A DNA stretch of 64,000 nucleotides from NCBI GenBank assembly GCA_964621525.1, contig CAZUMS010000003.1:37129-101128 (forward strand), in the 5' to 3' direction. This document shows positions 7,584-63,899 of this stretch, in pieces. Source of the stretch: an uncultured bacterium (GTDB taxonomy: Bacteria > JAGRBM01 > JAHCIT01). Below the pieces are notes generated by a model. The model was not told the origin of the DNA. It searched no databases and was given only the letters and a program-made list of their open reading frames with translations. The position numbers were made by a program, and so were the translations under genes. Positions within the stretch are counted from its first letter, which is position 1. Each line of letters begins with the position of its first letter.

Positions 7584-7800
7584 GGCTTTTCCTGCCTCTC
7601 CCGTTTTTCATCGTTCGGGAACGGAACCCTTGGAAGATCACCGGCGGACCTCCGGCCTTTACAACCTGTCCGTCTGCCGGATCCATTTCAGACCCGGCGG
7701 GGATCTCTTCGGGTTCCGGACCTCGTTTCAAATGGTTTTTGTCTCTCAGGCGAGACAGGCCGGGCCGGGTGGATCGGACGGCACGGCAGTCTTTCCCACC
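7584..7800 (-). promoter_or_regulatory. amt1 5' leader (~215 nt) with conserved 5' block
   Basis: Minus-strand block gggaaagac..gtgccg..gatccacccgg.ccgg..gtct.gcctgag (plus 7741-7800) is shared with the amt2 leader (plus 10196-10245); it lies immediately downstream of the predicted sigma54 promoter. Confidence 0.5.
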
Positions 7801-23577: not shown

Positions 23578-24516
23578 TCAGTGGGCCCGTTCGACCACGT
23601 ACCGCGCCAGCGCCCTTAAAGGATCGGCGCGGCGGTCGAATTTTTTCAGCGAGGCTACCGCCCGTTCCGCCGTGTCACGGGCGGCTTTCCGGGAACCTTC
23701 GATGCCGAGCAGCGCCGGAAAAGTCATCTTCTTCTCGGCGAGGTCGCTCTTGGCGGTCTTGCCGAGCGTCTTCTCGTCGGCGGTGAGATCCAGCACATCG
23801 TCCTGGATCTGGAACGCGAGGCCGATCAGGCGTCCGTAGTTGGCGAGCGCCTTCCGCTGGGCGCTCGGCGCACCGCAGAGAATCGCCCCGCCCTCGACCG
23901 AGGCGGCGATCAGCGCGCCTGTTTTGCAGAGGTGCAGCCGCTCGAGCTCCGAACGGGTGAGGCGCTTGCCCTCGGCGGCGAGATCCAGGGCCTGCCCGCG
24001 GATCATTCCCTTGTAGCCGGCCGCTTCCGCCAGCACGTTGGTGAACTCCAGCACGAGAGCGGGCGGCACGCGGCGGCGGTTGCTCGAATTTGAGCAGATG
24101 GCAAAGGCGTCCGTCAGGAGTCCGTCGCCCGCGAGAATCGCCACGGCCTCGCCGAAAACGACGTGATTGGTCGGCCGTCCACGGCGCAGGTCGTCGTCGT
24201 CCATGGCGGGCAGGTCGTCGTGAACCAGCGAATAGGTATGAACAAGCTCGATGGCACAGGCGAACGGCAGCACGGCGTCGGAGCTCCCACCCACCGCTTC
24301 GGCGGCGGCCAGGGCGAGCACCGGCCGGAGCCGCTTGCCGCCGGCCAGCAGGCTGTAGCGCATGGCCTTGCCGATCTGGGCGTCGGCGGGCATCTCCCGG
24401 GGTGCATGACGCCGGAGTGCGGCTTCCACCCGGCGGGCCTGCCGCTTGAGGTATGCCTCGAACGTCTCACCGTTCAGAAACCCGCCGGAGGGCCGGCTAC
24501 CGGTTTTTCTGGTCAC
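23578..24516 (-). CDS. ispA: (2E,6E)-farnesyl diphosphate synthase / geranyltranstransferase
   Basis: 312 aa; GGKRLRP, first DDLPAMDDDDLRRG, second QIQDDVLD; classic xseB-ispA pairing. Confidence 0.9.
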   Translation of the reverse strand: MTRKTGSRPSGGFLNGETFEAYLKRQARRVEAALRRHAPREMPADAQIGKAMRYSLLAGGKRLRPVLALAAAEAVGGSSDAVLPFACAIELVHTYSLVHDDLPAMDDDDLRRGRPTNHVVFGEAVAILAGDGLLTDAFAICSNSSNRRRVPPALVLEFTNVLAEAAGYKGMIRGQALDLAAEGKRLTRSELERLHLCKTGALIAASVEGGAILCGAPSAQRKALANYGRLIGLAFQIQDDVLDLTADEKTLGKTAKSDLAEKKMTFPALLGIEGSRKAARDTAERAVASLKKFDRRADPLRALARYVVERAH

Positions 24517-42700: not shown

Positions 42701-45748
<3,048 letters not shown>

Positions 45749-45752
<4 letters not shown>

Positions 45753-46393
45753 GGCGCATCCCCCTTCAGGACCACACTGCCGGTGGCGGTGGAAATGCCC
45801 GAGCTGTTCCACAGGCGCCAGACGAGCTCGGTTTCCGGTGCCGGATCTTCCTCGTAGAACAGCACCCCTGAAACCCGTTCCCCCGGCAGGAGCCGCCGGG
45901 CTTCCAGTGCGTGATTGCCGAAATCGGCGATCCGCTCCCGGTTCGGACCTCCCTGCATCGAGAGTGTAAGGCGTTCGGCTGGTGCCCAGAGGACAAGCAG
46001 AAGAAGGCGTATGAGACCGTAGCCGTCGTAGTTCACCGGCCGGTGCCTCCACGAAGTCATCATCGCCGCCCTGAGCGGCGGGAGCGGGTGCACCCCGATG
46101 CGGGTCGAAGACAGTGTGAAATCCCACGGCTCGAGATCGACGGGCTCTTCGAGTCCGTTCAGCACGGCGACGTGAACCGCAAGGACATGGTCGCTCGTGC
46201 CGGAGTCCCATTCGTTCTCGCCAAGTAGCCGGGCTTCAACCCTGACAGAACCGGCCGGGGGTTTTCCGGCCTCTGCCGCCGGGAGCCGGAGCGGCGCATA
46301 ACCGCACCCCGTCACGAGGCAGGCGGCAAATACCAGCGGAATCAGGAGACGTTTCACAAAGCCTATCGTTGCCGGAACGGTTCCGGCACGCAA
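45749..46393 (-). CDS. lipoprotein (~200 aa), unknown function
   Basis: VKRLLIPLVFAACLVTGCG lipobox; start ambiguous (TTG per track or internal GTG). Confidence 0.5.
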
Positions 46394-46412: not shown

Positions 46413-48242
46413 ATGGACCGACCTGTACCCGCCGCGCTGCCGGAATCCGTTCCGGCCCTGACCCGCCTCGACCGGCTGATCCTCCTTGCCGGGGCGGCAG
46501 TTTATCTCGCACTCCTGCCACTGGCGTTCGGCCGGGCCGGGGACGCTGTGGTCGATTCCTTTCACGATCTCGTGACCGTCATGCGGATCTCGCACGGCGA
46601 AGTCCTCTATCGGGATATCGCCTTCCTGTATGGCCCCATGGGGCCGCTTACGGTCTGGCTCTGGACGGCGCTGGCGGGGCTCACCGTGAAATCCTACCTC
46701 GTCCTGTGCGCCCTGCTCGCCGCGGCGGAGCTCTGGCTCGCCCTGAAAATAGCCCGGCGCTACCTCGCCCCCCTGGGTTGCCTGCTGCTTTTGCTCGCCC
46801 TCCTCTTCGGCTTCACGTTTCAAAGCGAACTGTTCTCCAGGCTCATGCCCTATTCGTTCTCGGCGTTTCTGGCCGCGACAGGTTTCCTGCTGTTTCTGGA
46901 CCGGCTTCTGGCCGCGCGTGAAGGCAGCCTGATCGCCGCCTTCACGGGGGGCCTCGTCGCCGGGCTCCTGCTCCATACGAAGCTCGAATTCGGCCTGGCG
47001 GCGCTCGGAACCGCCGGACTGGATCTCGCGACCGAACGTATTTTTTACCGCCGGCACGAACCGGTCACCCGCCACCAGCCGCACCTTTGGGCCGGAATTC
47101 TGCTGGGAGCTGGATTCGGCTTCATCGTCGTGAACTCCCTTGGAGCTTCACTTTCCGACTATGCCGTGAACGTCGACCCGAGACCGTTCCTTTCAAGTCC
47201 AGCCGGAAAGGCGCTTGCCCGGACCGCCGGCGGAATTTCCTCCTTTGCAGGTTTCCTGAATTTCCTCCGTCAGGCGGGGGTTTCCCTCGCCCTCGCCGTT
47301 ATGCCCGCCGCCTTCGTCTGGTGGGCGGGAACCCGAAACCACCGCTCCGCTCTCCTCTCCGCCGTTCTTGCCGGCGTCTTCCTTCTGGCGGCAGCAGGCG
47401 CGCCGGGGGGATTCGGCGCTGCACTGGAGATCGCCGCGGACTACACCATACTGGCCGGTGTGATCCCACTGCTGCTGCTTGCAGCAGCTGCACTCGCCCG
47501 GGACCGGCAGGATCTCGAGCCCGGAGGACGCACAAAATTTATTCTCGCCGCCGCCGGACTCGCCCTGCTCGCGAGAACCCCGAACGCGCTGTCCCCCGGC
47601 CTGTTCGGGGCATTCTACCTGCTGCCGGGCACGGTACTCGCCGTCAGCCTGTCGGGCTGGTGGGGATGCTGGTTCTCGGACTCCAGTCCTCGCCGGTCCG
47701 GCCAGGCCGTCGCCGCCGGGCTGCTGGTGTTCTGCCTGCCCGGATTCGTGCAGAACCTCGACCGGTTCCGGTTCAAGGAGTATGCGCCCGCCGAGGACCT
47801 GATGCCGTTCGCCACCGACGGACGGCGAGCCAAAGTGATCGGAGAGACCATTGCCTTCCTGCGAACACGGATGAAACCCGGCGACCCGTTTGCCGCCCTT
47901 CCGCAAGAACCGGTCCTCTACTTTGCCCTTGAGGCAAAACCCGTGTTCCCGGATCACAACTTCATCGCTCATGTGGTGCGAGGAGAACCGATGGAGCAGC
48001 TCGCCCGGCAGCTAGAGAGCACACTCCCCGCCTACGTGGCGGTGAGCAACCGCGCCTATCGCGAGGGTGGGCTTGGTGGGTTTGGAACCACTTACGCCCG
48101 GGAGATCCAGGAAGTTCTCAGCCGCCGTTACCGGGTGGCAAAAACCTTCGGCTCGCCGTCGATACCTCCCGGCCATGTCTCCACCGGCGGACTCGGGGAC
48201 CCGCTCTATGCAATTACGGTCTGGGAACTGAAGCCCGATTGA
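46413..48242 (+). CDS. polytopic membrane protein, possible GT-C-fold (ArnT/PMT-like) glycosyltransferase
   Basis: 609 aa; more than 10 predicted TM helices with aromatic-rich early loops (DAVVDSFHD...LYRDIAFLYGPMGP), then a ~150-aa soluble C-terminal domain. Confidence 0.35.
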   Translation: MDRPVPAALPESVPALTRLDRLILLAGAAVYLALLPLAFGRAGDAVVDSFHDLVTVMRISHGEVLYRDIAFLYGPMGPLTVWLWTALAGLTVKSYLVLCALLAAAELWLALKIARRYLAPLGCLLLLLALLFGFTFQSELFSRLMPYSFSAFLAATGFLLFLDRLLAAREGSLIAAFTGGLVAGLLLHTKLEFGLAALGTAGLDLATERIFYRRHEPVTRHQPHLWAGILLGAGFGFIVVNSLGASLSDYAVNVDPRPFLSSPAGKALARTAGGISSFAGFLNFLRQAGVSLALAVMPAAFVWWAGTRNHRSALLSAVLAGVFLLAAAGAPGGFGAALEIAADYTILAGVIPLLLLAAAALARDRQDLEPGGRTKFILAAAGLALLARTPNALSPGLFGAFYLLPGTVLAVSLSGWWGCWFSDSSPRRSGQAVAAGLLVFCLPGFVQNLDRFRFKEYAPAEDLMPFATDGRRAKVIGETIAFLRTRMKPGDPFAALPQEPVLYFALEAKPVFPDHNFIAHVVRGEPMEQLARQLESTLPAYVAVSNRAYREGGLGGFGTTYAREIQEVLSRRYRVAKTFGSPSIPPGHVSTGGLGDPLYAITVWELKPD

Positions 48243-48251
48243 CGGCCGGAA

Positions 48252-48764
48252 TCATTCTTCGGGGATGCCGTACTCAGCGAGCAGCTGGGTCAGCCGCTCG
48301 ATGTTCACGAACTCGATGGGCGAGCCTTCCACGATCTTGTGGACGTCGGCCGTGAAGTAGTCGGTCGTGATGAACACGCCCTTGAGGCCCCGCTCACCAC
48401 GGACCGAGCTTTTCAGCTCCTCGACCCGCTCGGCGGTCACAGGCTCGTCGCTCATGACACAATGGAAAATCACGAGTCCCGAGGCGAGCCCTGCCGGTAG
48501 CGAGGCGAACACCTCGAACTCGTTGTCGTCGGACCGCTCGATTTTCTGGACGTTCATCCCCTGCGCGAGAGCAAGCTGACGGACGGCCTCGGCGAAGGTT
48601 TCAAGCGACGAGAACCGGCGGAACCGGCCCTTGTCCGGAGGAGCGTCGGTGCCGCCGCCCTCGCCCCCATCCTCGCGGAGCACAGGTACAGGATGCCGCC
48701 CGGCAATGGCGATCAGGACAAACCCCAGCAGGAGTCCTCCGATCATCAGATACACAACGCTCAT
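48252..48764 (-). CDS. membrane-anchored restriction-endonuclease-like (Mrr_cat-like) domain protein
   Basis: N-terminal TM MSVVYLMIGGLLLGFVLIAIA; C-terminal DNEFEVFA...VIFHCVMSDEPVTAERVEELKSSVRGERGLKGVFITTDYFTADV resembles Mrr_cat, but the expected (Q/E)xK is HCV here. Confidence 0.4.
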   Translation of the reverse strand: MSVVYLMIGGLLLGFVLIAIAGRHPVPVLREDGGEGGGTDAPPDKGRFRRFSSLETFAEAVRQLALAQGMNVQKIERSDDNEFEVFASLPAGLASGLVIFHCVMSDEPVTAERVEELKSSVRGERGLKGVFITTDYFTADVHKIVEGSPIEFVNIERLTQLLAEYGIPEE

Positions 48765-48881: not shown

Positions 48882-49133
48882 TTATTCGCACATTTCCTTG
48901 TACATCTCGGCTCGGCGGCCCTCGCGAATCAGCTGATCCGCCCGGAAACCCTGCCGCAGGGAAGTCCAGATCGTGCCGTTCACGAGGAAAATCATGCCGA
49001 CGATCGGAATATTGTCGCCCTTCTTCACGATCAGGAGGAAGTTGTGGCTGTAAATACAGCCGGCAATGAGGCCGATCAGCAGGGCCACATTGAAGACGAT
49101 CATGGAAATATCGAGCGCTTTGATCCGGTCCAT
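48882..49133 (-). CDS. small 2-TM membrane protein (83 aa), unknown
   Basis: MDRIKALDISMIVFNVALLIGLIAGCIYSHNFLLIVKKGDNIPIVGMIFLVNGTIW...; reduced GC relative to neighbours. Confidence 0.5.
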   Translation of the reverse strand: MDRIKALDISMIVFNVALLIGLIAGCIYSHNFLLIVKKGDNIPIVGMIFLVNGTIWTSLRQGFRADQLIREGRRAEMYKEMCE

Positions 49134-49364
49134 CGTCTGTTTTCTCCCCGAAAGGGTCTCTGCCCGGCTTACTGAACCCTGAATAACGGGTCCGAGGGCC
49201 AGCGGGCGTTTTGTGATGTACCCACCGGGGCAAAATCAAGGGCATAAGGAAAGGGTTTCCAGGATGAAAAACCGGTGGAATCCGGCAGGGGTCCGGGGGT
49301 GGCCATACAGGCCAGGTAGCGGTTATAGGGGACGCGGGGCGCCAATAGGCCCCGGAGCACCGGT

Positions 49365-51452
49365 TTGTTCGAGCGAATCCTGGAAATCCTGCAGGCCCAG
49401 CCCCCCGAGGTCCTGATTGCCATCATGGTAGGCATCCTGCTCGCCTGCGGGCTGGGACTCCCGATGCCCGAGGACATCGTCCTCGTAACGACGGGCTACC
49501 TTGCCTACAACGGACTGCTCGATTTCCGGTGGGAGGTTGTCCCTGACGGCTATCACGAAGGATTGTTGATCGGCATAGCCGCGACGCTGCTGGGTGTTCT
49601 GGGCGGGGACCTGATCATTTTCTCCCTCGGCAGCCGGTACGGGACCCACATCCTCGACTTCAGGCCGGTCAAAAAGATCGCCACCCGGGAGCGGATCGAG
49701 GCCGCTGAATACTACTTCGAAAAATACGGGGCCAGGTTCATTTTCGTCGGCCGCTTCATGGCCGGAGTCCGGGCGCCGATGTTCCTGACAGCAGGCATGC
49801 TCAAGGTTCCGATGCGGACGTTTATCCTTTACGACGGAATCTCGGCACTCTTCAGCGTCCCGCTTCTCGTCTGGGTGGGATTCCACTTCGGCGAGGACAT
49901 CAACGATGCCTTCCGGGCAGCCAAGAAGGCGCAGAACACGATCCTCTACCTGTTCGCTGCCGTGGGACTCTATTTCCTCGTCCGCTATATCCTCCGGGTC
50001 ACGGGCGTCCTCAGGGAGAAACTGATCGTCGATCCGGCTGCGGAGAAATTCGAGCAGCAGCACCCCTCGGACGGCGAAAAACCCTTCATTCTGACCCCCG
50101 GTTTCGGGAAAGGCGCAAACCACATGAGCATTTTCAAGGCATACGACATCCGGGGCGTCGTTCCCGGCGAGCTGGACGAACGGCTCGCCCGGCGTATCGG
50201 GATGGCTGTGGTGGATTTTCTCAAGGTGGACCGGCTCTGCGTCTGCCGCGACGTGCGAGCAACGGGGGATGCGATCTTCGAAGCCTTCGCCGCGGGCTGC
50301 CGCCACCGGGGAGCGGATGTCTACGATATCGGCCGGGGGACGACCCCGCTGCTCAATTTCATGGTCGGCCGGCACGCCTTCCCCGCCGGAGTCATGATTA
50401 CCGCCAGCCATAATCCGCCCCAGTACAACGGCTTCAAGATCTGCCGCTCGGGCGCGGTGCCGGTTTATGATGCCGAAATCCGCACCATCGGCGAGATGGC
50501 CCTCGAACCGGCCGAACCCTCTGCAGCACCGGCCGCCGGGAAGATCGTACCGTTCCAGGACCGGGAGCCTTACTACGCGGCGATCCGGGCAAAGATCCGG
50601 AGCGGCGGCCGCCGGCTGAAAGTCGTCGTCGACATGTCGAATGGTGCAGCAACGACAGTGACACCCGCTCTCCTGCCGCTCCTTCCCCACGACATCGTCG
50701 TCATCAACGGCGAGCCGGACGGCACGTTCCCGAACCACGAACCCGATCCGCTCAAGGAAGAGAACCTCGAGCAGTGCCGCCGGAAAGTGATCGCCGAAAA
50801 GGCCGACCTTGGTGCCGTGTTCGATGGCGATGCGGACCGGCTGGTGTTCCTGGACGAGACGGGCCGGACCGTGACGGGCGATATCGCGACGCTCCTCATG
50901 GCGCTGAACCTGATCGGCGGCCGCGCGGGAGAAACCGTCCTCTACGACGTCCGTTCCTCGTGGACCGTCCGGGAGGAACTGCTCAAAGTGAAGGCTAAAC
51001 CCGACGTCTGCCGCGTGGGCCACGCCTTCATCAAGATGGCCATGCGCGAACGTGACGCCCTGTGCGCCGGAGAGCTGTCCGGGCACTACTACTTCCGGGA
51101 CAATTTCTACGCCGAAAATACCGACCTCGCCCTGCTCCTCATCCTGAACCAGCTCGCCTTCTCGGACGAGCCGCTCAGCCGGATTGCGGGCCGCTATCGC
51201 CGCTACCACGCCTCGGGGGAGATCAATTCGGAAGTGGCCGACAAAGCGGCTATGATCGCCGGCATCAAGGAGCGTTACGGGGCCAGGGGCCGGGTATCCG
51301 AAGTGGACGGTCTCACGGTCGAATTCGACGACTGGTGGTTCAACCTGAGGCCGTCGAACACCGAGCCGCTCCTGCGCCTGAACGTCGAGGCGAAGACGGC
51401 GGACCGGCTCAGGGAAAAGACGGACGAGCTCCTGAAGACCATCCGGGCTTGA
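49365..51452 (+). CDS. fusion ORF: N-terminal DedA/SNARE-associated (TVP38/TMEM64) membrane domain plus C-terminal phosphomannomutase/phosphoglucomutase
   Basis: Residues 1-215: DedA signature ACGLGLPMPEDIVLVTTGYLAYNG, FIFVGRFMAGVRAPMFLTAG. From residue 254 (nt 50124): MSIFKAYDIRGVVPGEL, active-site TASHNPPQYNGFK, DGDADR. No in-frame stop between the two parts. Confidence 0.7.
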   Translation: MFERILEILQAQPPEVLIAIMVGILLACGLGLPMPEDIVLVTTGYLAYNGLLDFRWEVVPDGYHEGLLIGIAATLLGVLGGDLIIFSLGSRYGTHILDFRPVKKIATRERIEAAEYYFEKYGARFIFVGRFMAGVRAPMFLTAGMLKVPMRTFILYDGISALFSVPLLVWVGFHFGEDINDAFRAAKKAQNTILYLFAAVGLYFLVRYILRVTGVLREKLIVDPAAEKFEQQHPSDGEKPFILTPGFGKGANHMSIFKAYDIRGVVPGELDERLARRIGMAVVDFLKVDRLCVCRDVRATGDAIFEAFAAGCRHRGADVYDIGRGTTPLLNFMVGRHAFPAGVMITASHNPPQYNGFKICRSGAVPVYDAEIRTIGEMALEPAEPSAAPAAGKIVPFQDREPYYAAIRAKIRSGGRRLKVVVDMSNGAATTVTPALLPLLPHDIVVINGEPDGTFPNHEPDPLKEENLEQCRRKVIAEKADLGAVFDGDADRLVFLDETGRTVTGDIATLLMALNLIGGRAGETVLYDVRSSWTVREELLKVKAKPDVCRVGHAFIKMAMRERDALCAGELSGHYYFRDNFYAENTDLALLLILNQLAFSDEPLSRIAGRYRRYHASGEINSEVADKAAMIAGIKERYGARGRVSEVDGLTVEFDDWWFNLRPSNTEPLLRLNVEAKTADRLREKTDELLKTIRA

Positions 51453-51498
51453 CGCCCCGGTCCGGGAGCGGCCCGGACTCCCGCACCGGGCGGAGCAT

Positions 51499-54150
51499 AT
51501 GAACGGGCAGCTGGAAACGCTGACAGTCGAGGAGATGCCGAAGTCGGCCACGAGGATATTCCTCGAAGGCACGGCCATCGCCGCCTTCTTTGCCCTGATG
51601 ACCGTCGTGGTCGGCGTCGTCTCGATGTTCCTGACCGGCGGGATGTACGACCCCGAAGCCCGCCAGTTCTTCGGCGGCTTCATGAGCTCGGACCGCTTCG
51701 GCCCTCTCGGCATTTTCGTATTCATCCTTGTGAACGTCTGGACCTGGTGGTTCTGGCGGATCATGGGCTGCGTCCGGGAGTTCAAAGCGCTTCCGCCGGA
51801 AGAATGGAAAGCGAGTCCCGAGCGCCTGACCGAGCTGTTCCGCCAGATTCACGACATCCCTTACCGGGCGGGGTTTTCCAGTTTCCTCATGTGGCTGGTG
51901 GGCGGGGTGATCGCCATCTGGTTTTTCCGGGACCTGCCGGGATTCATGCGGTGGCTTGTGCCGCTGATCGCCGTAAGTGCGGGGCTCTCGATCAACCTGC
52001 CGCAGATGTACACGCTGAAGTTCCTGGTGCGGCCTGTCGAGAACGAGATCCGCCGCCTGAATCCCGACATCAGCATCGCCGCGCTCGAACGGCGGAACAG
52101 CATCGGGCGCAAGCTCCGGGCGGGACTGATCGGCCTGCTGGCGCTTACACTGGGCGTATCGTTCCTGATCTCTTTCCTGCTCGTGGAACGCTACCGTCTG
52201 ATCGACCGCAAGGACCGGCTGACGAACCAGATGGTTCTCTACCAGGACTGGCTGTCCCGCATGAACATTTCCGATGCAACGCCGGAAGAAATGGACAGGT
52301 GGATGGGTCCCCTGAAGGAGTTCAGGACCAGTTCTCACGGAGGCGCGATTCTCTATGATCTGGATACCAGCCGCTTCCTCGTGAACGTGCCCGGAGCGCC
52401 GGAAACGAAGGAAACCATTGATCTCATGCTGGCATCCGACCAGCAGTTCACCGACGACTACATCAACGGATTCACCTACCGGTCACTGCCCCCGGACCTG
52501 TTCGACCGGTACGGCCTGAGCGGCCGCTACCGACTTGTTCTCGCGGAACATTACGTCCTCGGATCGGGCGGATTCCTGAGAAACTCGCTCCTCGTTTACG
52601 GCATATTCTTCGCCATGGCCCTGCTCATCTCCTACTACCTGAGCCGGGACATCATCGTCCCCCTGCGGGAGCTCCTCCGGTACACGAAGCGCATGGGCCA
52701 GGGCCGCCTGAACCGCCGCCGCCCGTTCGTCGCCGGCGACGAGCTGGGAGAACTTGCCGAAGAGACCGCCCAGACGGCCTCGAATATCGCCGCCATCGTG
52801 ACCGATATCCGCACCGTCGGCGGTTCGGTGAACGATGCAGCCCGTGCCGTCGCGGGCCGCAGCGTCTCGCTCTCTCAGGCAAGCCGTGACCAGCTCCATC
52901 AGGCCGAGAACACGGCCCGTTCCATCGACCTGCTGGCCAGCCGTCTCGAAGGCAGCAAGCAGGAGATCGACCGGCTGGAAGAAGCCGTTTCCGCCAGTTC
53001 GTCGGCAGCCATCGAGATGCATGCGAGCGCCCAGCAGGTGAACCAGACCACCACCCAGCTCGCCGTCGAGACGGAGAATATCAAGAACGCTTCCGGGAAG
53101 ATGGTCGAGGCGACCGAGCATGTGGCGAACCGCCTCGCCGACCTCGAGTCGTACACCGACCAGACGGTTTCGGCTGTCCAGCTCATCGAGGACCGCATCC
53201 GCGCGCTCCGCAAGGACGCAAGCCTGTCGGAACAGCTATCGAGCGACGCGCTGGCCAACAGCCAGGTCGGGCGCGACGCACTCGCCGCTACCGTCCAGTC
53301 CATCGCCTCGGGCCGTCAGCTCGTCATCGAAACAGCCCAGATCATCGTCTCGCTGCGGAACCGGAACCGCGCCATCAACGAGATCATCGAGACCATCCGT
53401 TCCGTGGCAAGCCGTACGACACTGCTCTCTCTGAACGCCTCCATCCTGGCGGCACAGGCCGGAGAACACGGGGCATCGTTCCAGGTGGTGGCCGAAGAGA
53501 TCCGCCAGCTCGCCACCGGTACCAACACCAAGGCCCGTGAGATCGCCGAACTCATCGAGACGATCCAGGTGGAGACCGAAAATGCGGCGCAGGCCATCGA
53601 GCAGGTGACTGTGCAGGCGGACGAGAATGTCTCGCTTGCCGAAGGCACTTCCCGGGTCCTCGATGAAATCACCCGCAAGGCGGAGAGTTCCCTTTCGGTG
53701 GTGGAGCGAACCACCCGCGCCATCGAGGACCAGAGCCGGTCGGCGGGGGAGATTACCGAGATCGTGAAACAGCTCGGCGAACTGGTCCGGGAGTTTTCCC
53801 AGCTCGGTGAATCCCAGCGGACCATGGGCGGCCGCATCGCCGCCGGCATCGAGCAGGTCCGCGAACACGTACTCCGGGTCAGCCGGGCAAGTTCCGAACA
53901 GGTGCGCGCCTCCGGGCAGGTGACGGATGGTGTCGAAACCGTGACCCACACTCTCCAGAACGTCCTCCGCACCCTGAACGAGGAAATCGGTTCCACGGGT
54001 GATATCCGTAAATCTTCCGGCCTGGTCCGTGACACGGCGACAAGCTCGTCCCACCAGAGCGAGGAACTGGTCCGAGTATCCCGTGAGCTGGAACGGTTCG
54101 CCGAGCTGCTCCAGAAGGATGTGGACCGGTTCCGGATCGAAGACTCCTGA
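51499..54150 (+). CDS. methyl-accepting chemotaxis protein
   Basis: 883 aa; N-terminal multi-TM sensor region, HAMP, long MCP signalling domain with conserved tip TLLSLNASILAAQAGEHGASFQVVAEEIRQLA. Confidence 0.9.
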   Translation: MNGQLETLTVEEMPKSATRIFLEGTAIAAFFALMTVVVGVVSMFLTGGMYDPEARQFFGGFMSSDRFGPLGIFVFILVNVWTWWFWRIMGCVREFKALPPEEWKASPERLTELFRQIHDIPYRAGFSSFLMWLVGGVIAIWFFRDLPGFMRWLVPLIAVSAGLSINLPQMYTLKFLVRPVENEIRRLNPDISIAALERRNSIGRKLRAGLIGLLALTLGVSFLISFLLVERYRLIDRKDRLTNQMVLYQDWLSRMNISDATPEEMDRWMGPLKEFRTSSHGGAILYDLDTSRFLVNVPGAPETKETIDLMLASDQQFTDDYINGFTYRSLPPDLFDRYGLSGRYRLVLAEHYVLGSGGFLRNSLLVYGIFFAMALLISYYLSRDIIVPLRELLRYTKRMGQGRLNRRRPFVAGDELGELAEETAQTASNIAAIVTDIRTVGGSVNDAARAVAGRSVSLSQASRDQLHQAENTARSIDLLASRLEGSKQEIDRLEEAVSASSSAAIEMHASAQQVNQTTTQLAVETENIKNASGKMVEATEHVANRLADLESYTDQTVSAVQLIEDRIRALRKDASLSEQLSSDALANSQVGRDALAATVQSIASGRQLVIETAQIIVSLRNRNRAINEIIETIRSVASRTTLLSLNASILAAQAGEHGASFQVVAEEIRQLATGTNTKAREIAELIETIQVETENAAQAIEQVTVQADENVSLAEGTSRVLDEITRKAESSLSVVERTTRAIEDQSRSAGEITEIVKQLGELVREFSQLGESQRTMGGRIAAGIEQVREHVLRVSRASSEQVRASGQVTDGVETVTHTLQNVLRTLNEEIGSTGDIRKSSGLVRDTATSSSHQSEELVRVSRELERFAELLQKDVDRFRIEDS

Positions 54151-60126: not shown

Positions 60127-60450
60127 AATCGAATAAATCCCTGCCGGATCACGGCTTTCTGTGATTTTCCTGAGTCAGGAGGCTTACACCTACCCCGAGG
60201 GGAGACCCGATCTCAAGAGGGCTCTCTAGTGCCTTCCCGGAACGGCCTTGTCAAACCCCCTAGGCCACCGGCCCGAAACCGCCAATCCCCCGGCAATACT
60301 GGAGATTTCCGGCTAGGATAGTTACAAAGGCATCGGGGGCGGGGGTCCCGGCGTGTCCTCTTCCGAAGGGCCGCAGGGCTGATAACGGTCTTGCGGATTC
60401 CGGAGCTTTCCGGAATCGACCGGCGCGGAAAGGTTTGGCACCCCGGCGGC

Positions 60451-61374
60451 ATGTATTCCTTCTGGCAGAAACCGCTCTACCGGCTCGTGATTCTCACGGC
60501 CGCGTCGTTTTTCGTGTTTCTGAACAGCATCGCCCGGCAGAATCAGGTGGGCCCCGTACCTCGGCTCGTGCTGAACAGTGTGGCGGCCGTACATCAGGGG
60601 CTTGCGGGTTCGGCTTCATGGATAGCCAGCGTCGCGGGCCGCTATGTCTATCTCGTGGGGATCAAGGACCGGCTCGATCGGGCGGAGCAGGAGCGCGATT
60701 ATCTGCTGGCCGAACGGCACCGGCTGATCGAGCTGGCCCGGGAGAATGCGAGACTGCGCAGTCTCGCCGGTCTCCGGGAGACGCTTGGCGGCGACCTCCT
60801 GCCTGCCCACGTTATCGGCGTCTCGGACGACCCGACCGTCATTACCATCGACCAGGGGTCGTTCAGATCCGTCGTCCCCGGACAGGCTGTGATCTCGTCC
60901 GGCGGTGTCGTCGGCCAGATCTGGTACGCGGGGGAGTTCACCTCAACGGTGCTTCTCCTCTCGGACGCCCGGAGCCGTGTCCCCGCCTACGCCGAGCGTT
61001 CACGGGCCCGGGGCATCATCACCGGCTACGGAAACGATGAGCCCATCCAGGCGGCGCGAGTCCGCCGGACCGACGATGTGAAAACGGGCGACCTGTTCAT
61101 CTCGGCCGGCTCGGGGCTGATCTTCCCCAGGGGACTCCCCGTGGCCCGCGTCGTCTCCGTCGGCGACCCCGGCAACGAGCTCACCCTGCCCATCGTCGTG
61201 GAACCCGCCGTGGACGTGAACCTGCTGGACGAGGTGATGGTGGTCCGGCTGCGGGCCGACACGGGGACGGACCCCGCCGCGAGCGGCGCCGCCGGAACGC
61301 CTGCTCAACCTGAAACTGCCGCGATCCCGGTCCTTCAGTCCAGGGCTGCCGAAACACACGGGAGGAATCCATGA
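60451..61374 (+). CDS. mreC: rod shape-determining protein MreC
   Basis: From MYSFWQKPLYRLVILTAASFFVFL; coiled-coil then beta-rich domains (VIGVSDDPTVITIDQG..., GDLFISAG...GLPVARVVSV); upstream of mreD and mrdA. Confidence 0.85.
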   Translation: MYSFWQKPLYRLVILTAASFFVFLNSIARQNQVGPVPRLVLNSVAAVHQGLAGSASWIASVAGRYVYLVGIKDRLDRAEQERDYLLAERHRLIELARENARLRSLAGLRETLGGDLLPAHVIGVSDDPTVITIDQGSFRSVVPGQAVISSGGVVGQIWYAGEFTSTVLLLSDARSRVPAYAERSRARGIITGYGNDEPIQAARVRRTDDVKTGDLFISAGSGLIFPRGLPVARVVSVGDPGNELTLPIVVEPAVDVNLLDEVMVVRLRADTGTDPAASGAAGTPAQPETAAIPVLQSRAAETHGRNP

Positions 61375-61925
61375 TCGACCCGTCCCAGGATCCGGTCTGG
61401 CGCGGCTTCCTGCTCTATGTCGCCGTGGGCGCCCTGTGCCTCATGCTCCAGCAGACGCTGCTCACGCCGCTTGTCCCCTGGCTTTCTGTCCAGCCGCTCG
61501 TCGCCCTCTGCGTACACGCCGGATTCCGGCGCGGCCCCCGCGAGGCCATCTGGGCCGGGACGGCGCTCGGCATCCTGTGGGACGTGATGGGCTCCGGCCT
61601 GTTCGGGGCCGCCTGGTTCCGGCTGATGGCGGTGCTCGTCGTTGTGCATCTGGCCCGCCGGTTCTTCCGCGATTCGGTGGCGTTCCTTGTCTTCACCACG
61701 TTTATAGCCTCGGCCGCCGAACGCATCATCTACGTTGTCGAAACGGCGGGGTTCGCCGGATGGGAGATCGACACTGGCAGCGTGCTGGCCCGGATCCCCG
61801 TGGCCGGGCTTGCGAACGCCCTGCTGGCGCTCGGCTTCGTCTATTTCTTCGACCGGGTGTTCAGGACCCGGATGTTCCGCCTCGTTCAGACCGGCATCAA
61901 CATGGGCGGCTACGGAAGCAGCTGA
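61371..61925 (+). CDS. mreD: rod shape-determining protein MreD
   Basis: 184 aa polytopic; ATGA overlap with mreC; position in the mreCD-mrdA-rodA cluster. Confidence 0.7.
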   Translation: MIDPSQDPVWRGFLLYVAVGALCLMLQQTLLTPLVPWLSVQPLVALCVHAGFRRGPREAIWAGTALGILWDVMGSGLFGAAWFRLMAVLVVVHLARRFFRDSVAFLVFTTFIASAAERIIYVVETAGFAGWEIDTGSVLARIPVAGLANALLALGFVYFFDRVFRTRMFRLVQTGINMGGYGSS

Positions 61926-61934
61926 ACGGACGTC

Positions 61935-63899
61935 ATGGCGAACTATCTCGACACCGGCGCGATCCAGAAGTGGCTCCAGGGCCGCATCGCGCCGCTCGTG
62001 ATCCTGTTCACCGTGCCGCTTCTCGCCCTGATGATCCGGCTGTTCATCCTCCAGATCGTGCAGCACGAGCACTACGAGGTCCTCTCCCGGGACAACAAGC
62101 TGATCAGCGAACGGCTCGTGGGCTACCGGGGAATCATCTACGACCGCTACGGCACGATCCTCGCCGAGTCCCGCGCCGCCTTCTCGCTCATGCTGATGCC
62201 GGACCAGTTCCGGGTATCCCGTCATGACCGGCGGCGGCAGGATGACATCGACGCCCTGATCGGCCAGATCGCCCTGCTGCTCGAGGACGACCCGGCCAAT
62301 ATCCGGAAGTTCCTGAAATCCTGGAAAGGCCGGGACCAGTTTTTCTACCAGCCCTACCGCCGCGACCTCACCTGGGAACAGATGTCGCGGATCGAGGAAG
62401 CGCACCTGCCTCCGGCCTACGCCATGGTCATCACCGATCCGGTCCGCGACTATCCGTTCGGACGCAACCTCTCGCACGTCCTGGGTTATGTGGGCGAGAT
62501 CAGCGAGAGCGAGCTGCCGAAATTCCGCGAGAAATCCCCCGCCAAGGATTACCGGCAGGGCGACTGGATCGGAAAGGCCGGTATCGAACTCACCATGGAG
62601 CAGGAACTCCGGGGGGAAACCGGCTACCGGGAGCGGATCGCCAACGCCAAGGGCGAAATCCTGGACCCGGAAGACCTCGCCGAGTTCGGTATCCGCGGCG
62701 AGCATATCCCGGCGAAGTCGGGCAACTCGCTGATGCTCACCATCGACGCCGAGCTCCAGCAGTACGCCTGGAACCGGATGGAGCATGTGCTCGAGGGTTC
62801 GCTGGTGGCCCTCGACCCCGCAAGCGGCGAAGTGCTGGCCATGGTGGACAAGCCCGGCTTCGATCCGAACCTGTTTTCCACCGGTATCCGGCCCGAGATC
62901 TACCAGTCGCTGCTCTCCGACAAGCTCAGGCCGCTGTTCTCGCGCACCGTGCAGGGACGCTATCCGCCGGGTTCCACCTACAAGATCGCTGTCCAGGCGG
63001 CCGCCCTCGAGGAAGGCGTGGTCGGGCCGAACACCTCCTACCTCTGCACGGGCAAGAAGAAATTCGGTAACCGCGATTTCGCCTGCTGGAACAAGAAGGG
63101 GCACGGCAACGTCTCGGCCAAACGGGCCATGCAGGGAAGCTGTGACGTCTATTTCTACAGCGCCGGCGCGGCGCTCGGTATCGAGAAACTGGCCTACTGG
63201 TCGGATCATTTCGGCCTCGGAAAGCCCACGGGTATCGAGCTGCCGCATGAAACCGCCGGTGTAAACCCGAGCCCGGAATGGAAAAAGCGCGTCCTCAAGC
63301 AGCCCTGGTACTGGGGCGAGCTGATCAGCTCGTCCATCGGTCAGGGCTACACGCTCATGAGCCCGCTCCAGGTCGCCAAGATGACCTCCGTGATCGCCGC
63401 GGGCGGCAAGGTGTACCGGCCGCATCTCGTCAAAGCCGTCGTCCCCGGCGACGGTTCCCCGGTCCGCGAGATCCCCAAGGACCCGGAAGAAATCCTGAAG
63501 ATGGACAGGAGCGTGATCCAGACAGTGACGGAGGGCCTCCGGGCCGTGGTGAACGAACCCGGCGGCACGGCATTCATGAGCCGGGCGAAGGACATCCTGA
63601 TCGCGGGGAAAACCGGCACCGCGCAGGTGTCGGCCATGGAACTCCAGAAGAAATACAAGGACAAGGGCGAAGAACTGCCCTATGACCTCCAGGACCACGC
63701 CTGGTTCACGGCCTATGCACCGGCGGGAGAAGATGAGACGCCGGAGATCGTCGTGACGACGCTTGTGGAGCACGGCGGCCACGGCTCCAGCGCGGCGGCC
63801 CCGCTCGTCAGGGACGTGATTCTGGAGTGGCAGCGGCTGAAGGAAGCCCGCCGCCTCAAGGCGGAACTGAAGCCGCCCCGGGGGGAGGCCACGCCATGA
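61935..63899 (+). CDS. mrdA: penicillin-binding protein 2 (peptidoglycan D,D-transpeptidase)
   Basis: 654 aa; SxxK (GSTYKIA), SxN-like (SCD), KTGT (AGKTGTAQV). Confidence 0.9.
   Translation: MANYLDTGAIQKWLQGRIAPLVILFTVPLLALMIRLFILQIVQHEHYEVLSRDNKLISERLVGYRGIIYDRYGTILAESRAAFSLMLMPDQFRVSRHDRRRQDDIDALIGQIALLLEDDPANIRKFLKSWKGRDQFFYQPYRRDLTWEQMSRIEEAHLPPAYAMVITDPVRDYPFGRNLSHVLGYVGEISESELPKFREKSPAKDYRQGDWIGKAGIELTMEQELRGETGYRERIANAKGEILDPEDLAEFGIRGEHIPAKSGNSLMLTIDAELQQYAWNRMEHVLEGSLVALDPASGEVLAMVDKPGFDPNLFSTGIRPEIYQSLLSDKLRPLFSRTVQGRYPPGSTYKIAVQAAALEEGVVGPNTSYLCTGKKKFGNRDFACWNKKGHGNVSAKRAMQGSCDVYFYSAGAALGIEKLAYWSDHFGLGKPTGIELPHETAGVNPSPEWKKRVLKQPWYWGELISSSIGQGYTLMSPLQVAKMTSVIAAGGKVYRPHLVKAVVPGDGSPVREIPKDPEEILKMDRSVIQTVTEGLRAVVNEPGGTAFMSRAKDILIAGKTGTAQVSAMELQKKYKDKGEELPYDLQDHAWFTAYAPAGEDETPEIVVTTLVEHGGHGSSAAAPLVRDVILEWQRLKEARRLKAELKPPRGEATP

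Follow-up and report, generated by a model that had tools for sequence, protein, structure and literature searches.

The DNA analysed here, referred to as the window, is a stretch of 64,000 nucleotides from an uncultured bacterium (contig CAZUMS010000003.1 of assembly GCA_964621525.1). A single open reading frame (ORF) of the window joins an N-terminal DedA-family membrane domain to a complete C-terminal phosphomannomutase/phosphoglucomutase (PMM/PGM). The explanation that we favor, with moderate confidence, is that this ORF encodes a bifunctional inner-membrane protein, in which the mutase would be tethered to an UptA-like polyprenyl-phosphate flippase. The supply of sugar 1-phosphate would then be co-expressed and co-localized with the recycling of the lipid carrier.

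Architecture of the fusion gene

The fusion ORF starts with a TTG codon, which is preceded by a Shine-Dalgarno (SD)-like sequence and coincides in the alignment with the N-termini of all orthologs (Table 1). The G+C content of its frame at the third and second codon positions (GC3 0.82, GC2 0.42) is similar to that of the genuine neighboring genes. An 820-residue ORF on the opposite strand (49323..51785), which overlaps the fusion ORF, is the usual shadow ORF of high-GC DNA. Pfam recognizes VTT_dom in residues 35-172 (57.1 bits, cutoff 33.9) and the domains PGM_PMM_I, II, III and IV in residues 256-689, all four above their curated cutoffs.

An earlier note on this DNA, made from the sequence alone, had described one 695-codon ORF containing a DedA domain and a complete PMM/PGM, and the ORF listing, the Pfam domains and the intact loops bear this description out. 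The motifs that it named are all in place: GLGLPMPED in residues 29-37, GRFMAGVRAP in residues 129-138, MSIFKAYDIRG from nucleotide 50124 and DGDADR at nucleotides 50823-50840. Its observation that no stop codon lies between the DedA and mutase parts holds for the window, for two independent Logan assemblies of the organism and for seven further ortholog clusters, in all of which the frame is uninterrupted.

Table 1. Positions of the fusion gene, its elements and its neighbors in the window (aa, amino acid residues; AF2, AlphaFold2)
Feature	Position	Strand	Description	Evidence or remark
DedA::PMM/PGM fusion ORF	49365..51452	+	695 codons/aa, TTG start, TGA stop	ORF listing, Pfam, orthologs
GGAG, Shine-Dalgarno-like	49354..49357	+	7 nt 5' of the TTG start	Read from sequence
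DedA/VTT membrane domain	49365..50000	+	aa 1-212 (core aa ~15-212)	Pfam, NCBIfam, AF2 helices, hydropathy/charge, YqjA alignment
Re-entrant hairpin 1 tip, GLPMPED	49455..49475	+	aa 31-37	Alignments
Re-entrant hairpin 2 tip, RFMAGVR	49752..49772	+	aa 130-136	Alignments
Linker, predicted cytoplasmic	50001..50123	+	aa 213-253, ~40 aa	Ortholog alignment, low model confidence
Internal in-frame ATG (Met254)	50124..50126	+	Where standalone PMMs start	TCC in L007
Complete alpha-D-phosphohexomutase (PMM/PGM) domain	50124..51449	+	aa 254-695 (442 aa), four subdomains	Pfam, NCBIfam, PDB matches
Phosphoserine loop TASHNP	50400..50417	+	Ser348	Invariant in fused and standalone homologs
Metal-binding loop DGDADR	50823..50840	+	aa 487-492	D487, G488, D489, D491, R492 invariant; A490 nearly
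GT-C-fold polytopic membrane protein	46413..48242	+	609 aa	AF2 and Foldseek; separate transcription unit from fusion
Membrane-anchored Mrr_cat-domain protein	48252..48764	-	170 aa	Pfam; neighbor in most loci of both clades
Small membrane protein	48882..49133	-	83 aa	Adjacent in most loci, close and distant clade alike; 62% identity between clades
Methyl-accepting chemotaxis protein	51499..54150	+	883 aa	Directly downstream of fusion, 46-nt gap

Conservation and rarity of the fusion

The probability that a missed stop codon or a frameshift in sequencing or assembly merged two separate genes is negligible. Such an artefact would be in keeping with a relative, locus L011, where dedA and pmm lie in different frames. 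Against it, the identical fusion protein is present in three assemblies of the source organism, and seven more clusters, obtained from other samples and with other assemblers, are all in frame. The length of the linker between the two domains differs among the orthologs by whole codons, within a range of roughly 40 to 65 residues. Assembly error is thus excluded as the source of the fusion.

Among 5.8 billion protein clusters that were searched, eight have the VTT plus PGM_PMM_I-IV architecture, and these are 100, 78, 77, 73, 53, 51, 48 and 46% identical to the window protein. Their samples and assemblers differ, and their sources include several Logan assemblies and NCBI metagenome-assembled genomes (MAGs) that carry the labels Deltaproteobacteria and Chrysiogenetes. 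The NCBI annotation of the fusion proteins is just 'VTT domain-containing protein'. The same fusion, which the earlier note proposed to seek in related genomes, is thus present there, and the orthologs are not always encoded as two genes: eight clusters are fused and one is split. At the nucleotide level seven fused loci were examined, and in each of them a single frame runs through the DedA part and the mutase. The ortholog P0005 (locus L007) has TCC (Ser) in place of the internal ATG and lacks an SD-like sequence, and the L007 mutase can therefore be made only as a fusion.

The fusion is rare. A profile built from the eight fused proteins was run with HMMER, exhaustively, against 1.84 billion 50%-identity representatives; only two of these gave a full-length match, and the remaining top hits cover only the mutase part. 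In a genome scan with the PMM motif I[FY]KAYDIR, the matches listed were all PMM N-termini, and those that seemed to reach into the linker (L013, L027 and others) were rejected as read-through of non-coding upstream sequence. The adjacency of DedA and PMM is confined to one clade, a small uncultured lineage.

The DedA domain

The best NCBIfam match of the N-terminal part is UptA, an undecaprenyl-phosphate transporter (59.5 bits, E = 4e-16). The DedA part was aligned with E. coli YqjA (sequence from NC_000913.3), to which it is about 24% identical. In this alignment R130 and R136 occupy the same columns as R130 and R136 of YqjA, and neither varies among the fused orthologs and the relatives that were aligned. 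By their offset, these two arginines would correspond to R112 and R118 of UptA. D37 aligns with YqjA D51 in an acidic column (Glu in P0006 and P0007), and the adjoining E36, which is invariant, probably matches UptA E32, again by offset. In UptA, R112, R118 and E32 contribute to the binding of undecaprenyl phosphate (C55-P or UndP) (PMC11474028).

Bacterial DedA proteins fall into three subfamilies (Todor et al., PMC9881974). The two arginines of hairpin 2 together with an acidic tip of hairpin 1 are hallmarks of the UndP-flippase subfamily, and the putative phospholipid-scramblase subfamily (COG0398) is devoid of the acidic tip and of one or both arginines (PMC9881974). Judged by its aligned residues, the DedA domain of the fusion has both arginines of the UndP-flippase subfamily (COG0586/UptA type) and probably its acidic tip, although the column of YqjA E39 is not acidic. 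The Pfam match to VTT_dom above its cutoff and the NCBIfam match uphold the earlier assignment of this domain to the DedA family.

In the AF2 prediction, helices 14-29 and 36-48 flank the GLPMPED loop, and helices spanning about residues 108-129 and 136-145 flank the RFMAGVR loop. Transmembrane (TM) helices are predicted by AF2 and hydropathy at residues 65-88, 153-175 and 191-212. The predicted order of the DedA elements is an N-terminal helix, re-entrant hairpin 1, a TM helix, cytoplasmic amphipathic helices, re-entrant hairpin 2 and two TM helices. A search by sequence for a solved DedA structure found none. The region 89-152, which is followed by the last two TM helices and then by the linker, contains 12 Lys and Arg residues versus one in the loop 49-64. 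The topology predicted for the DedA domain is N-out/C-in. The same topology reportedly has experimental support in YqjA, which is said to be functional with a C-terminal green fluorescent protein (GFP). UptA has been purified with a C-terminal GFP (PMC11474028). With the N-out/C-in topology the mutase would therefore be cytoplasmic, as its substrates require. The fusion in turn shows that the C-terminus must be cytoplasmic in this DedA subfamily.

The predicted periplasmic loop that follows re-entrant hairpin 1 contains an insertion of 13-16 residues (NGLLDFRWEVVPDGYH) at 49509..49556 (residues 49-64). It is present in the close clade (the window protein and P0002-P0004) and is not found in the distant clade, in L011 or in YqjA.

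A standalone DedA, P0125, is 37% identical to the DedA domain of the fusion and is encoded in another locus (L012, 5002..6696) divergently next to uppS-cdsA-dxr. The gene uppS encodes undecaprenyl-diphosphate synthase. This location is a hint, from a single case, that favors a role in polyprenyl-phosphate metabolism. The gene contexts of two other standalone DedAs among the nearest, P0134 and P0122, gave no hint.

The mutase domain

The best NCBIfam match of the C-terminal part is phosphomannomutase/phosphoglucomutase. The PDB entries with the highest scores, both over the full length, are XanA of Xanthomonas citri (293 bits) and AlgC of Pseudomonas aeruginosa (221 bits), and the scores of GlmM are at most 136 bits. 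In addition to the phosphoserine and metal-binding loops (Table 1), the sugar loop GELSGH (E570, S572, G573 and H574) and the phosphate loop RPSNTEP (R662, S664, T666 and E667) have these residues invariant in fused and standalone homologs. By these sequence criteria the C-terminal domain falls in the dual-specificity PMM/PGM group, and its catalytic loops are complete. XanA and AlgC are dual-specificity PMM/PGM enzymes that feed envelope polysaccharides. An identity as GlmM, which would provide a direct tie to peptidoglycan, is ruled out, as the GlmM scores are less than half of the PMM/PGM scores. Thus, the earlier description of a complete PMM/PGM stands, with four domains and all loops present. 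The assignment of mannose 1-phosphate as its product does not, because this is a dual-specificity group in which the sequence does not discriminate mannose from glucose.

Close homologs of this mutase are fused to other partners in other phyla. P0228 (853 aa), from Acidimicrobiales with 34 cluster members, combines GtrA_DPMS_TM, GT2 and PMM. P0183 (1284 aa) and P0178 (1358 aa) have large unannotated N-terminal regions, with a sub-threshold PTPS_related match in P0183. These regions were considered as relatives of the GT-C-fold protein of the window and were rejected, as neither BLASTP nor hhalign gave a match. The partners in P0171 (779 aa) and P0139/P0016 (596 aa) are an alpha/beta hydrolase and, in Planctomycetota, a C-terminal universal stress protein domain.

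The linker and the internal start codon

The AF2 model of the complete fusion has a predicted local distance difference test score (pLDDT) of 69 and a predicted template modeling score (pTM) of 0.53; its confidence is moderate in the two domains. A conserved motif, A-x-x-K/R-F-E-x-x-H-P, lies in the first half of the linker, and the second half differs between orthologs in both length and sequence. Since the split DedA of L011 has this motif as well, it is a trait of the DedA lineage and not a by-product of the fusion.

It appears improbable that this ORF has two products, with initiation at Met254 adding a free soluble PMM/PGM, in the extreme case to the point where nearly all of the mutase is separate; such initiation would not exclude the other explanations of the fusion. 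The duplex energy with the anti-SD sequence was calculated for the 17 nt upstream of the ATG and compared with that at all in-frame positions of the same ORF. Four orthologs have an SD-like site of -8.7 to -11.7 kcal/mol, which places them in the top 0.4-5%: -11.7 kcal/mol in L003 and L009 (0.4% and 1.5% of in-ORF positions are as strong, respectively), -8.9 kcal/mol in L010 (2.1%) and -8.7 kcal/mol in L008 (4.9%). These sites are as strong as the true pmm start of L011 (-9.0 kcal/mol, 3.6%) and, together with the retention of the ATG in seven of the eight fused clusters, they argue for internal initiation. On the other hand, the site is at the background level in the window (-4.9 kcal/mol) and in L004 (-5.4 kcal/mol), with 31% of in-ORF positions as strong in each case, and L007 has neither the ATG nor an SD (-2.4 kcal/mol, 70%). 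The sequence gggaaagg, which had been regarded as a possible internal SD of the window gene, is thus matched or beaten by nearly a third (31%) of the in-frame positions around it. Furthermore, the purine-rich codons of a linker rich in Gly, Glu and Lys can imitate an SD, and the full-length product would remain. Taken together, some lineages may plausibly make a free mutase; the window gives no indication of one, and the sequence of L007 makes one impossible.

A split relative and the history of the fusion

The nearest standalone DedA is P0121, a protein of 253 residues with 49% identity, which is encoded at locus L011 of a Bdellovibrionota MAG (GCA_040758475.1, JBFLVN010000073.1). At 7740..7765 of this locus the stop codon of dedA overlaps the ATG of a separate pmm as ATGA. 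The synteny of L011 is that of the distant fused orthologs, and a second database member shares the 253-residue length of P0121. Wherever the ATG is present, the Met-Ser junction reads ATG AGC, with TGA in the +1 frame. A single indel in the linker could therefore convert the fused form into the split one, or the reverse.

Neighbor-joining trees were built separately for the DedA part and the mutase part. The two trees broadly agree on the groupings, with a support of 87-90 for the close clade and only 20-50 for the distant clade, and both halves have therefore apparently been inherited together since before the clade diversified. L011 falls within the fused clade as the sister of P0005 (bootstrap 94 in the DedA tree and 55 in the PMM tree). 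The most parsimonious history, as far as the trees indicate, is one fusion followed by one fission. The alternative that L011 represents the ancestral unfused state was downgraded, since L011 is nested in the fused clade and its ATGA overlap is just what a 1-nt indel in a fused gene would leave. The split itself may reflect either a genuine secondary fission or an indel introduced by sequencing.

Possible function of the fusion protein

The link between DedA proteins and undecaprenyl-phosphate recycling dates only from 2022-2023, and the substrate assignment for most of them relies on genetics in a few model species and on gene-fusion and neighborhood arguments, such as that of DedA-PAP2. A natural fusion of a UptA-like DedA with a hexose-1-phosphate enzyme adds an independent 'Rosetta-stone' link between DedA and the supply of envelope-glycan precursors. 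The large soluble domain could also help in the determination of a DedA structure by cryo-electron microscopy. The impact is modest, as the architecture is limited to one small uncultured lineage and its function is a prediction.

By combining the above observations, it is possible to propose how the protein might work. The N-terminal DedA domain of the COG0586/UptA type would reside in the inner membrane in the N-out/C-in orientation. A flexible cytoplasmic linker of about 40 residues would hold the catalytically complete PMM/PGM close to the membrane on its cytoplasmic side, where the enzyme would turn hexose 6-phosphate (mannose and/or glucose) into hexose 1-phosphate, the precursor of the nucleoside diphosphate sugars that reload the carrier. 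The fusion would enforce 1:1 expression and place the supply of sugar precursors beside carrier recycling. Substrate channelling is not expected, because the two reactions are not consecutive. The P0228 fusion counts as independent support for a link of this PMM group to polyprenyl-phosphate sugars.

Several points weigh against tethering of a mutase to an undecaprenyl-phosphate flippase. The two activities are at least two pathway steps apart, which makes the benefit of fusing them less obvious. Both UptA equivalog cutoffs are missed (59.5 versus 250 for NF052604 and 20.9 versus 300 for NF052605); by NCBI's rule the DedA domain is therefore not a UptA ortholog, and UptA is just the nearest model. 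The column of YqjA E39 contains Cys, Ala or Asn and is not acidic. The mutase half, with 395 bits, is below the equivalog cutoff of 618. AF2 gives a pLDDT below 50 for residues 214-268 and predicts no fixed interface between the domains. The conserved neighbors of the fusion, which are a methyl-accepting chemotaxis protein (MCP), the Mrr_cat protein, the 83-residue protein and pgsA, are not genes of glycan synthesis. Outside the clade, the closest standalone PMM has no dedA neighbor, and no dedA was found within 6 kb of any of 80 diverse PMM loci (781 kb), a survey in which three positive controls were detected.

Some of these points suit a functionally neutral fusion, which we consider unlikely. 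In that case the overlapping neighbors dedA and pmm would have been joined by a 1-nt indel, and the two halves would work independently. A housekeeping PMM/PGM would merely be tethered to the membrane, and the cytoplasmic location of the DedA C-terminus would make this tolerable. Both the fused and the split state exist in the clade, one indel in the variable linker apart, which agrees with such an origin, as do the missing domain interface, the absence of the pairing from the 80 other PMM loci and the mostly housekeeping nature of the surrounding genes. PMMs of the same group are, moreover, joined to many unrelated partners, such as universal stress protein and alpha/beta hydrolase. A neutral junction is harder to reconcile with its persistence down to 46% identity, including one lineage that lost the internal start, and with the conserved tail motif (A..KFE..HP) ahead of a variable tether. 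The dedA-pmm pairing has also been retained across the clade while the flanking genes change.

The lipid handled by the DedA domain might instead be a glycerophospholipid, for example phosphatidylglycerol; together with pgsA and a PGM supplying glucose 1-phosphate, the protein would then serve the homeostasis of membrane lipids, glycolipids or periplasmic glucans. This explanation has a rather low probability. It draws on a bona fide pgsA (TIGR00560, 146-165 bits, cutoff 109). Each of the four fused loci of the distant clade, like the split locus L011, has this gene directly upstream in the same orientation. Yet pgsA is found neither in the whole 64-kb window nor in the close-clade loci, and being a housekeeping gene it may be adjacent by plain synteny. 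Some DedA proteins move phospholipids, namely PetA with phosphatidylethanolamine and the eukaryotic TMEM41B and VMP1, according to the published accounts (PMC10193950, PMC9881974), and anionic phospholipids compete with C55-P for binding to UptA (PMC11474028). The domain described here, unlike the putative scramblases of COG0398, has the acidic tip of hairpin 1 and both arginines. The undecaprenyl-phosphate flippase with a tethered mutase could be envisaged in a stricter form, in which the mutase is a sensor or gate for the flippase, or the reverse, such that return of the carrier to the cytoplasmic leaflet is mechanically coupled to how much hexose phosphate is available, with the A..KFE..HP motif as the coupling element. 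We regard this as very improbable. If true, it would constitute a direct regulatory link from central sugar metabolism to the undecaprenyl-phosphate cycle, for which we know of no precedent.

Comparison with known fusions and enzymes

DedA-PAP2 fusions, described by Roney & Rudner and by Todor et al., have served as 'Rosetta-stone' evidence for the role of DedA in the UndP cycle. In the DedA-PAP2 and DedA-rhodanese cases, as in the present one, the partner of DedA is an enzyme that takes part in the lipid-carrier or glycan cycle, and versions with fused and with adjacent genes both exist. PAP2, however, acts at the outer face in the step immediately before flipping, whereas PMM/PGM is a soluble cytoplasmic enzyme that is several steps away. 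The PMM fusion is also far rarer (2/1.84e9 representatives): the published fusion partners of DedA are PAP2, in about 1.3% of dedA genes, rhodanese and a pyridine-nucleotide oxidoreductase (Pyr_redox) (PMC9881974 and other published lists). The searchable literature contains no description of a DedA::phosphohexomutase fusion, and a full-text search for DedA with phosphomannomutase gave only unrelated papers. The remark of the earlier note that it knew of no such fusion is therefore consistent with both the literature and the published lists. DedA::PMM is a new architecture made of two well-known families, with the same logic as DedA-PAP2 but with non-consecutive steps and on the cytoplasmic side.

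The undecaprenyl-phosphate flippases of the UptA/COG0586 group (B. subtilis YngC, E. coli YqjA and YghB, P. aeruginosa PA4029) share with the DedA half the VTT fold, the two re-entrant hairpins, both arginines of hairpin 2, an acidic tip of hairpin 1 and the predicted N-out/C-in topology. The fusion differs from them by the non-acidic column of YqjA E39, its conserved cytoplasmic tail motif and its C-terminal enzyme of 442 residues. XanA (PDB 5BMN, 6NN2) and AlgC (PDB 1K35) have the same four domains and the loops TASHNP, DGDADR, GELSGH and RxSNTEP as the mutase half. They are free soluble proteins, whereas the mutase described here makes up the C-terminal end of a polytopic membrane protein. 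In P0228 a PMM of the same subgroup is likewise fused to a membrane protein of polyprenyl-phosphate-sugar metabolism. The partner in this case is similar to a polyprenyl-phosphate glycosyltransferase and not to DedA, and the fusion arose independently in another phylum.

Genomic neighborhood

The 609-residue protein encoded upstream of the fusion has no Pfam match even at E<10, and its distant homologs (about 25% identity) carry PMT_2. Its AF2 model has a pTM of 0.86, and the top 12 Foldseek matches in the PDB are all GT-C proteins, with ArnT (5f15, with bound undecaprenyl phosphate) in first place (E = 1.6e-6), followed by STT3, DPY19 and PglB (TM-scores 0.40-0.50). At the level of the fold, the earlier description of this protein as GT-C-like was right. 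The further proposal that it forms a compact envelope glycosylation module with the fusion is not supported as far as a conserved unit is concerned. Two opposite-strand genes separate the GT-C gene from the fusion, it belongs to another transcription unit, and only close-clade loci (73-100% identity) have it near the fusion. None was called in the sequence fetched for the distant fused loci and L011, which extends unequally, from about 2 to 8 kb upstream and from 0.9 to 8 kb downstream.

The Mrr_cat protein, which has a restriction-endonuclease fold, and a protein of 83-85 residues are paired beside the fusion in the window and in L003, L004, L007, L008 and L010; the pair was not called in L009. 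The 83-residue membrane protein belongs to no Pfam family. The MCP gene lies directly downstream in all fused loci that were read except L007. The N-terminal region of the MCP before HAMP, about 380 residues, is not covered by Pfam. The gap of 46 nt between the fusion and the MCP gene contains no terminator-like site, and the two genes may be co-transcribed, although a chemotaxis protein is an unexpected partner for an envelope-precursor gene. The MCP, the 83-85-residue protein and the Mrr_cat protein recur across the two clades, but no single one of them accompanies the fusion in every locus.

The other genes of the window that were scanned are housekeeping genes, encoding GatBC, UvrD, LigA, GidB, a SurA-like protein, MreCD and PBP2, and none among them encodes ManC, GT2/GtrA or a Wzx-type flippase. 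An Rfam scan of the window gave no matches, and a scan for promoters and terminators gave counts at the chance level. Between ligA and the GT-C-fold gene there are two co-oriented genes on the minus strand (45749..46393 and about 45003..45680), whose products have no Pfam match and possess hydrophobic, lipoprotein-like N-termini; the same arrangement is present in L003 and L004. A trans-polyprenyl diphosphate synthase (PF00348) is encoded at 23578..24516 on the minus strand of the window. The elongasome genes MreC-MreD-PBP2 are located at 60391..63899 on the plus strand. The organism therefore makes peptidoglycan and would, by inference, run an undecaprenyl-phosphate cycle.

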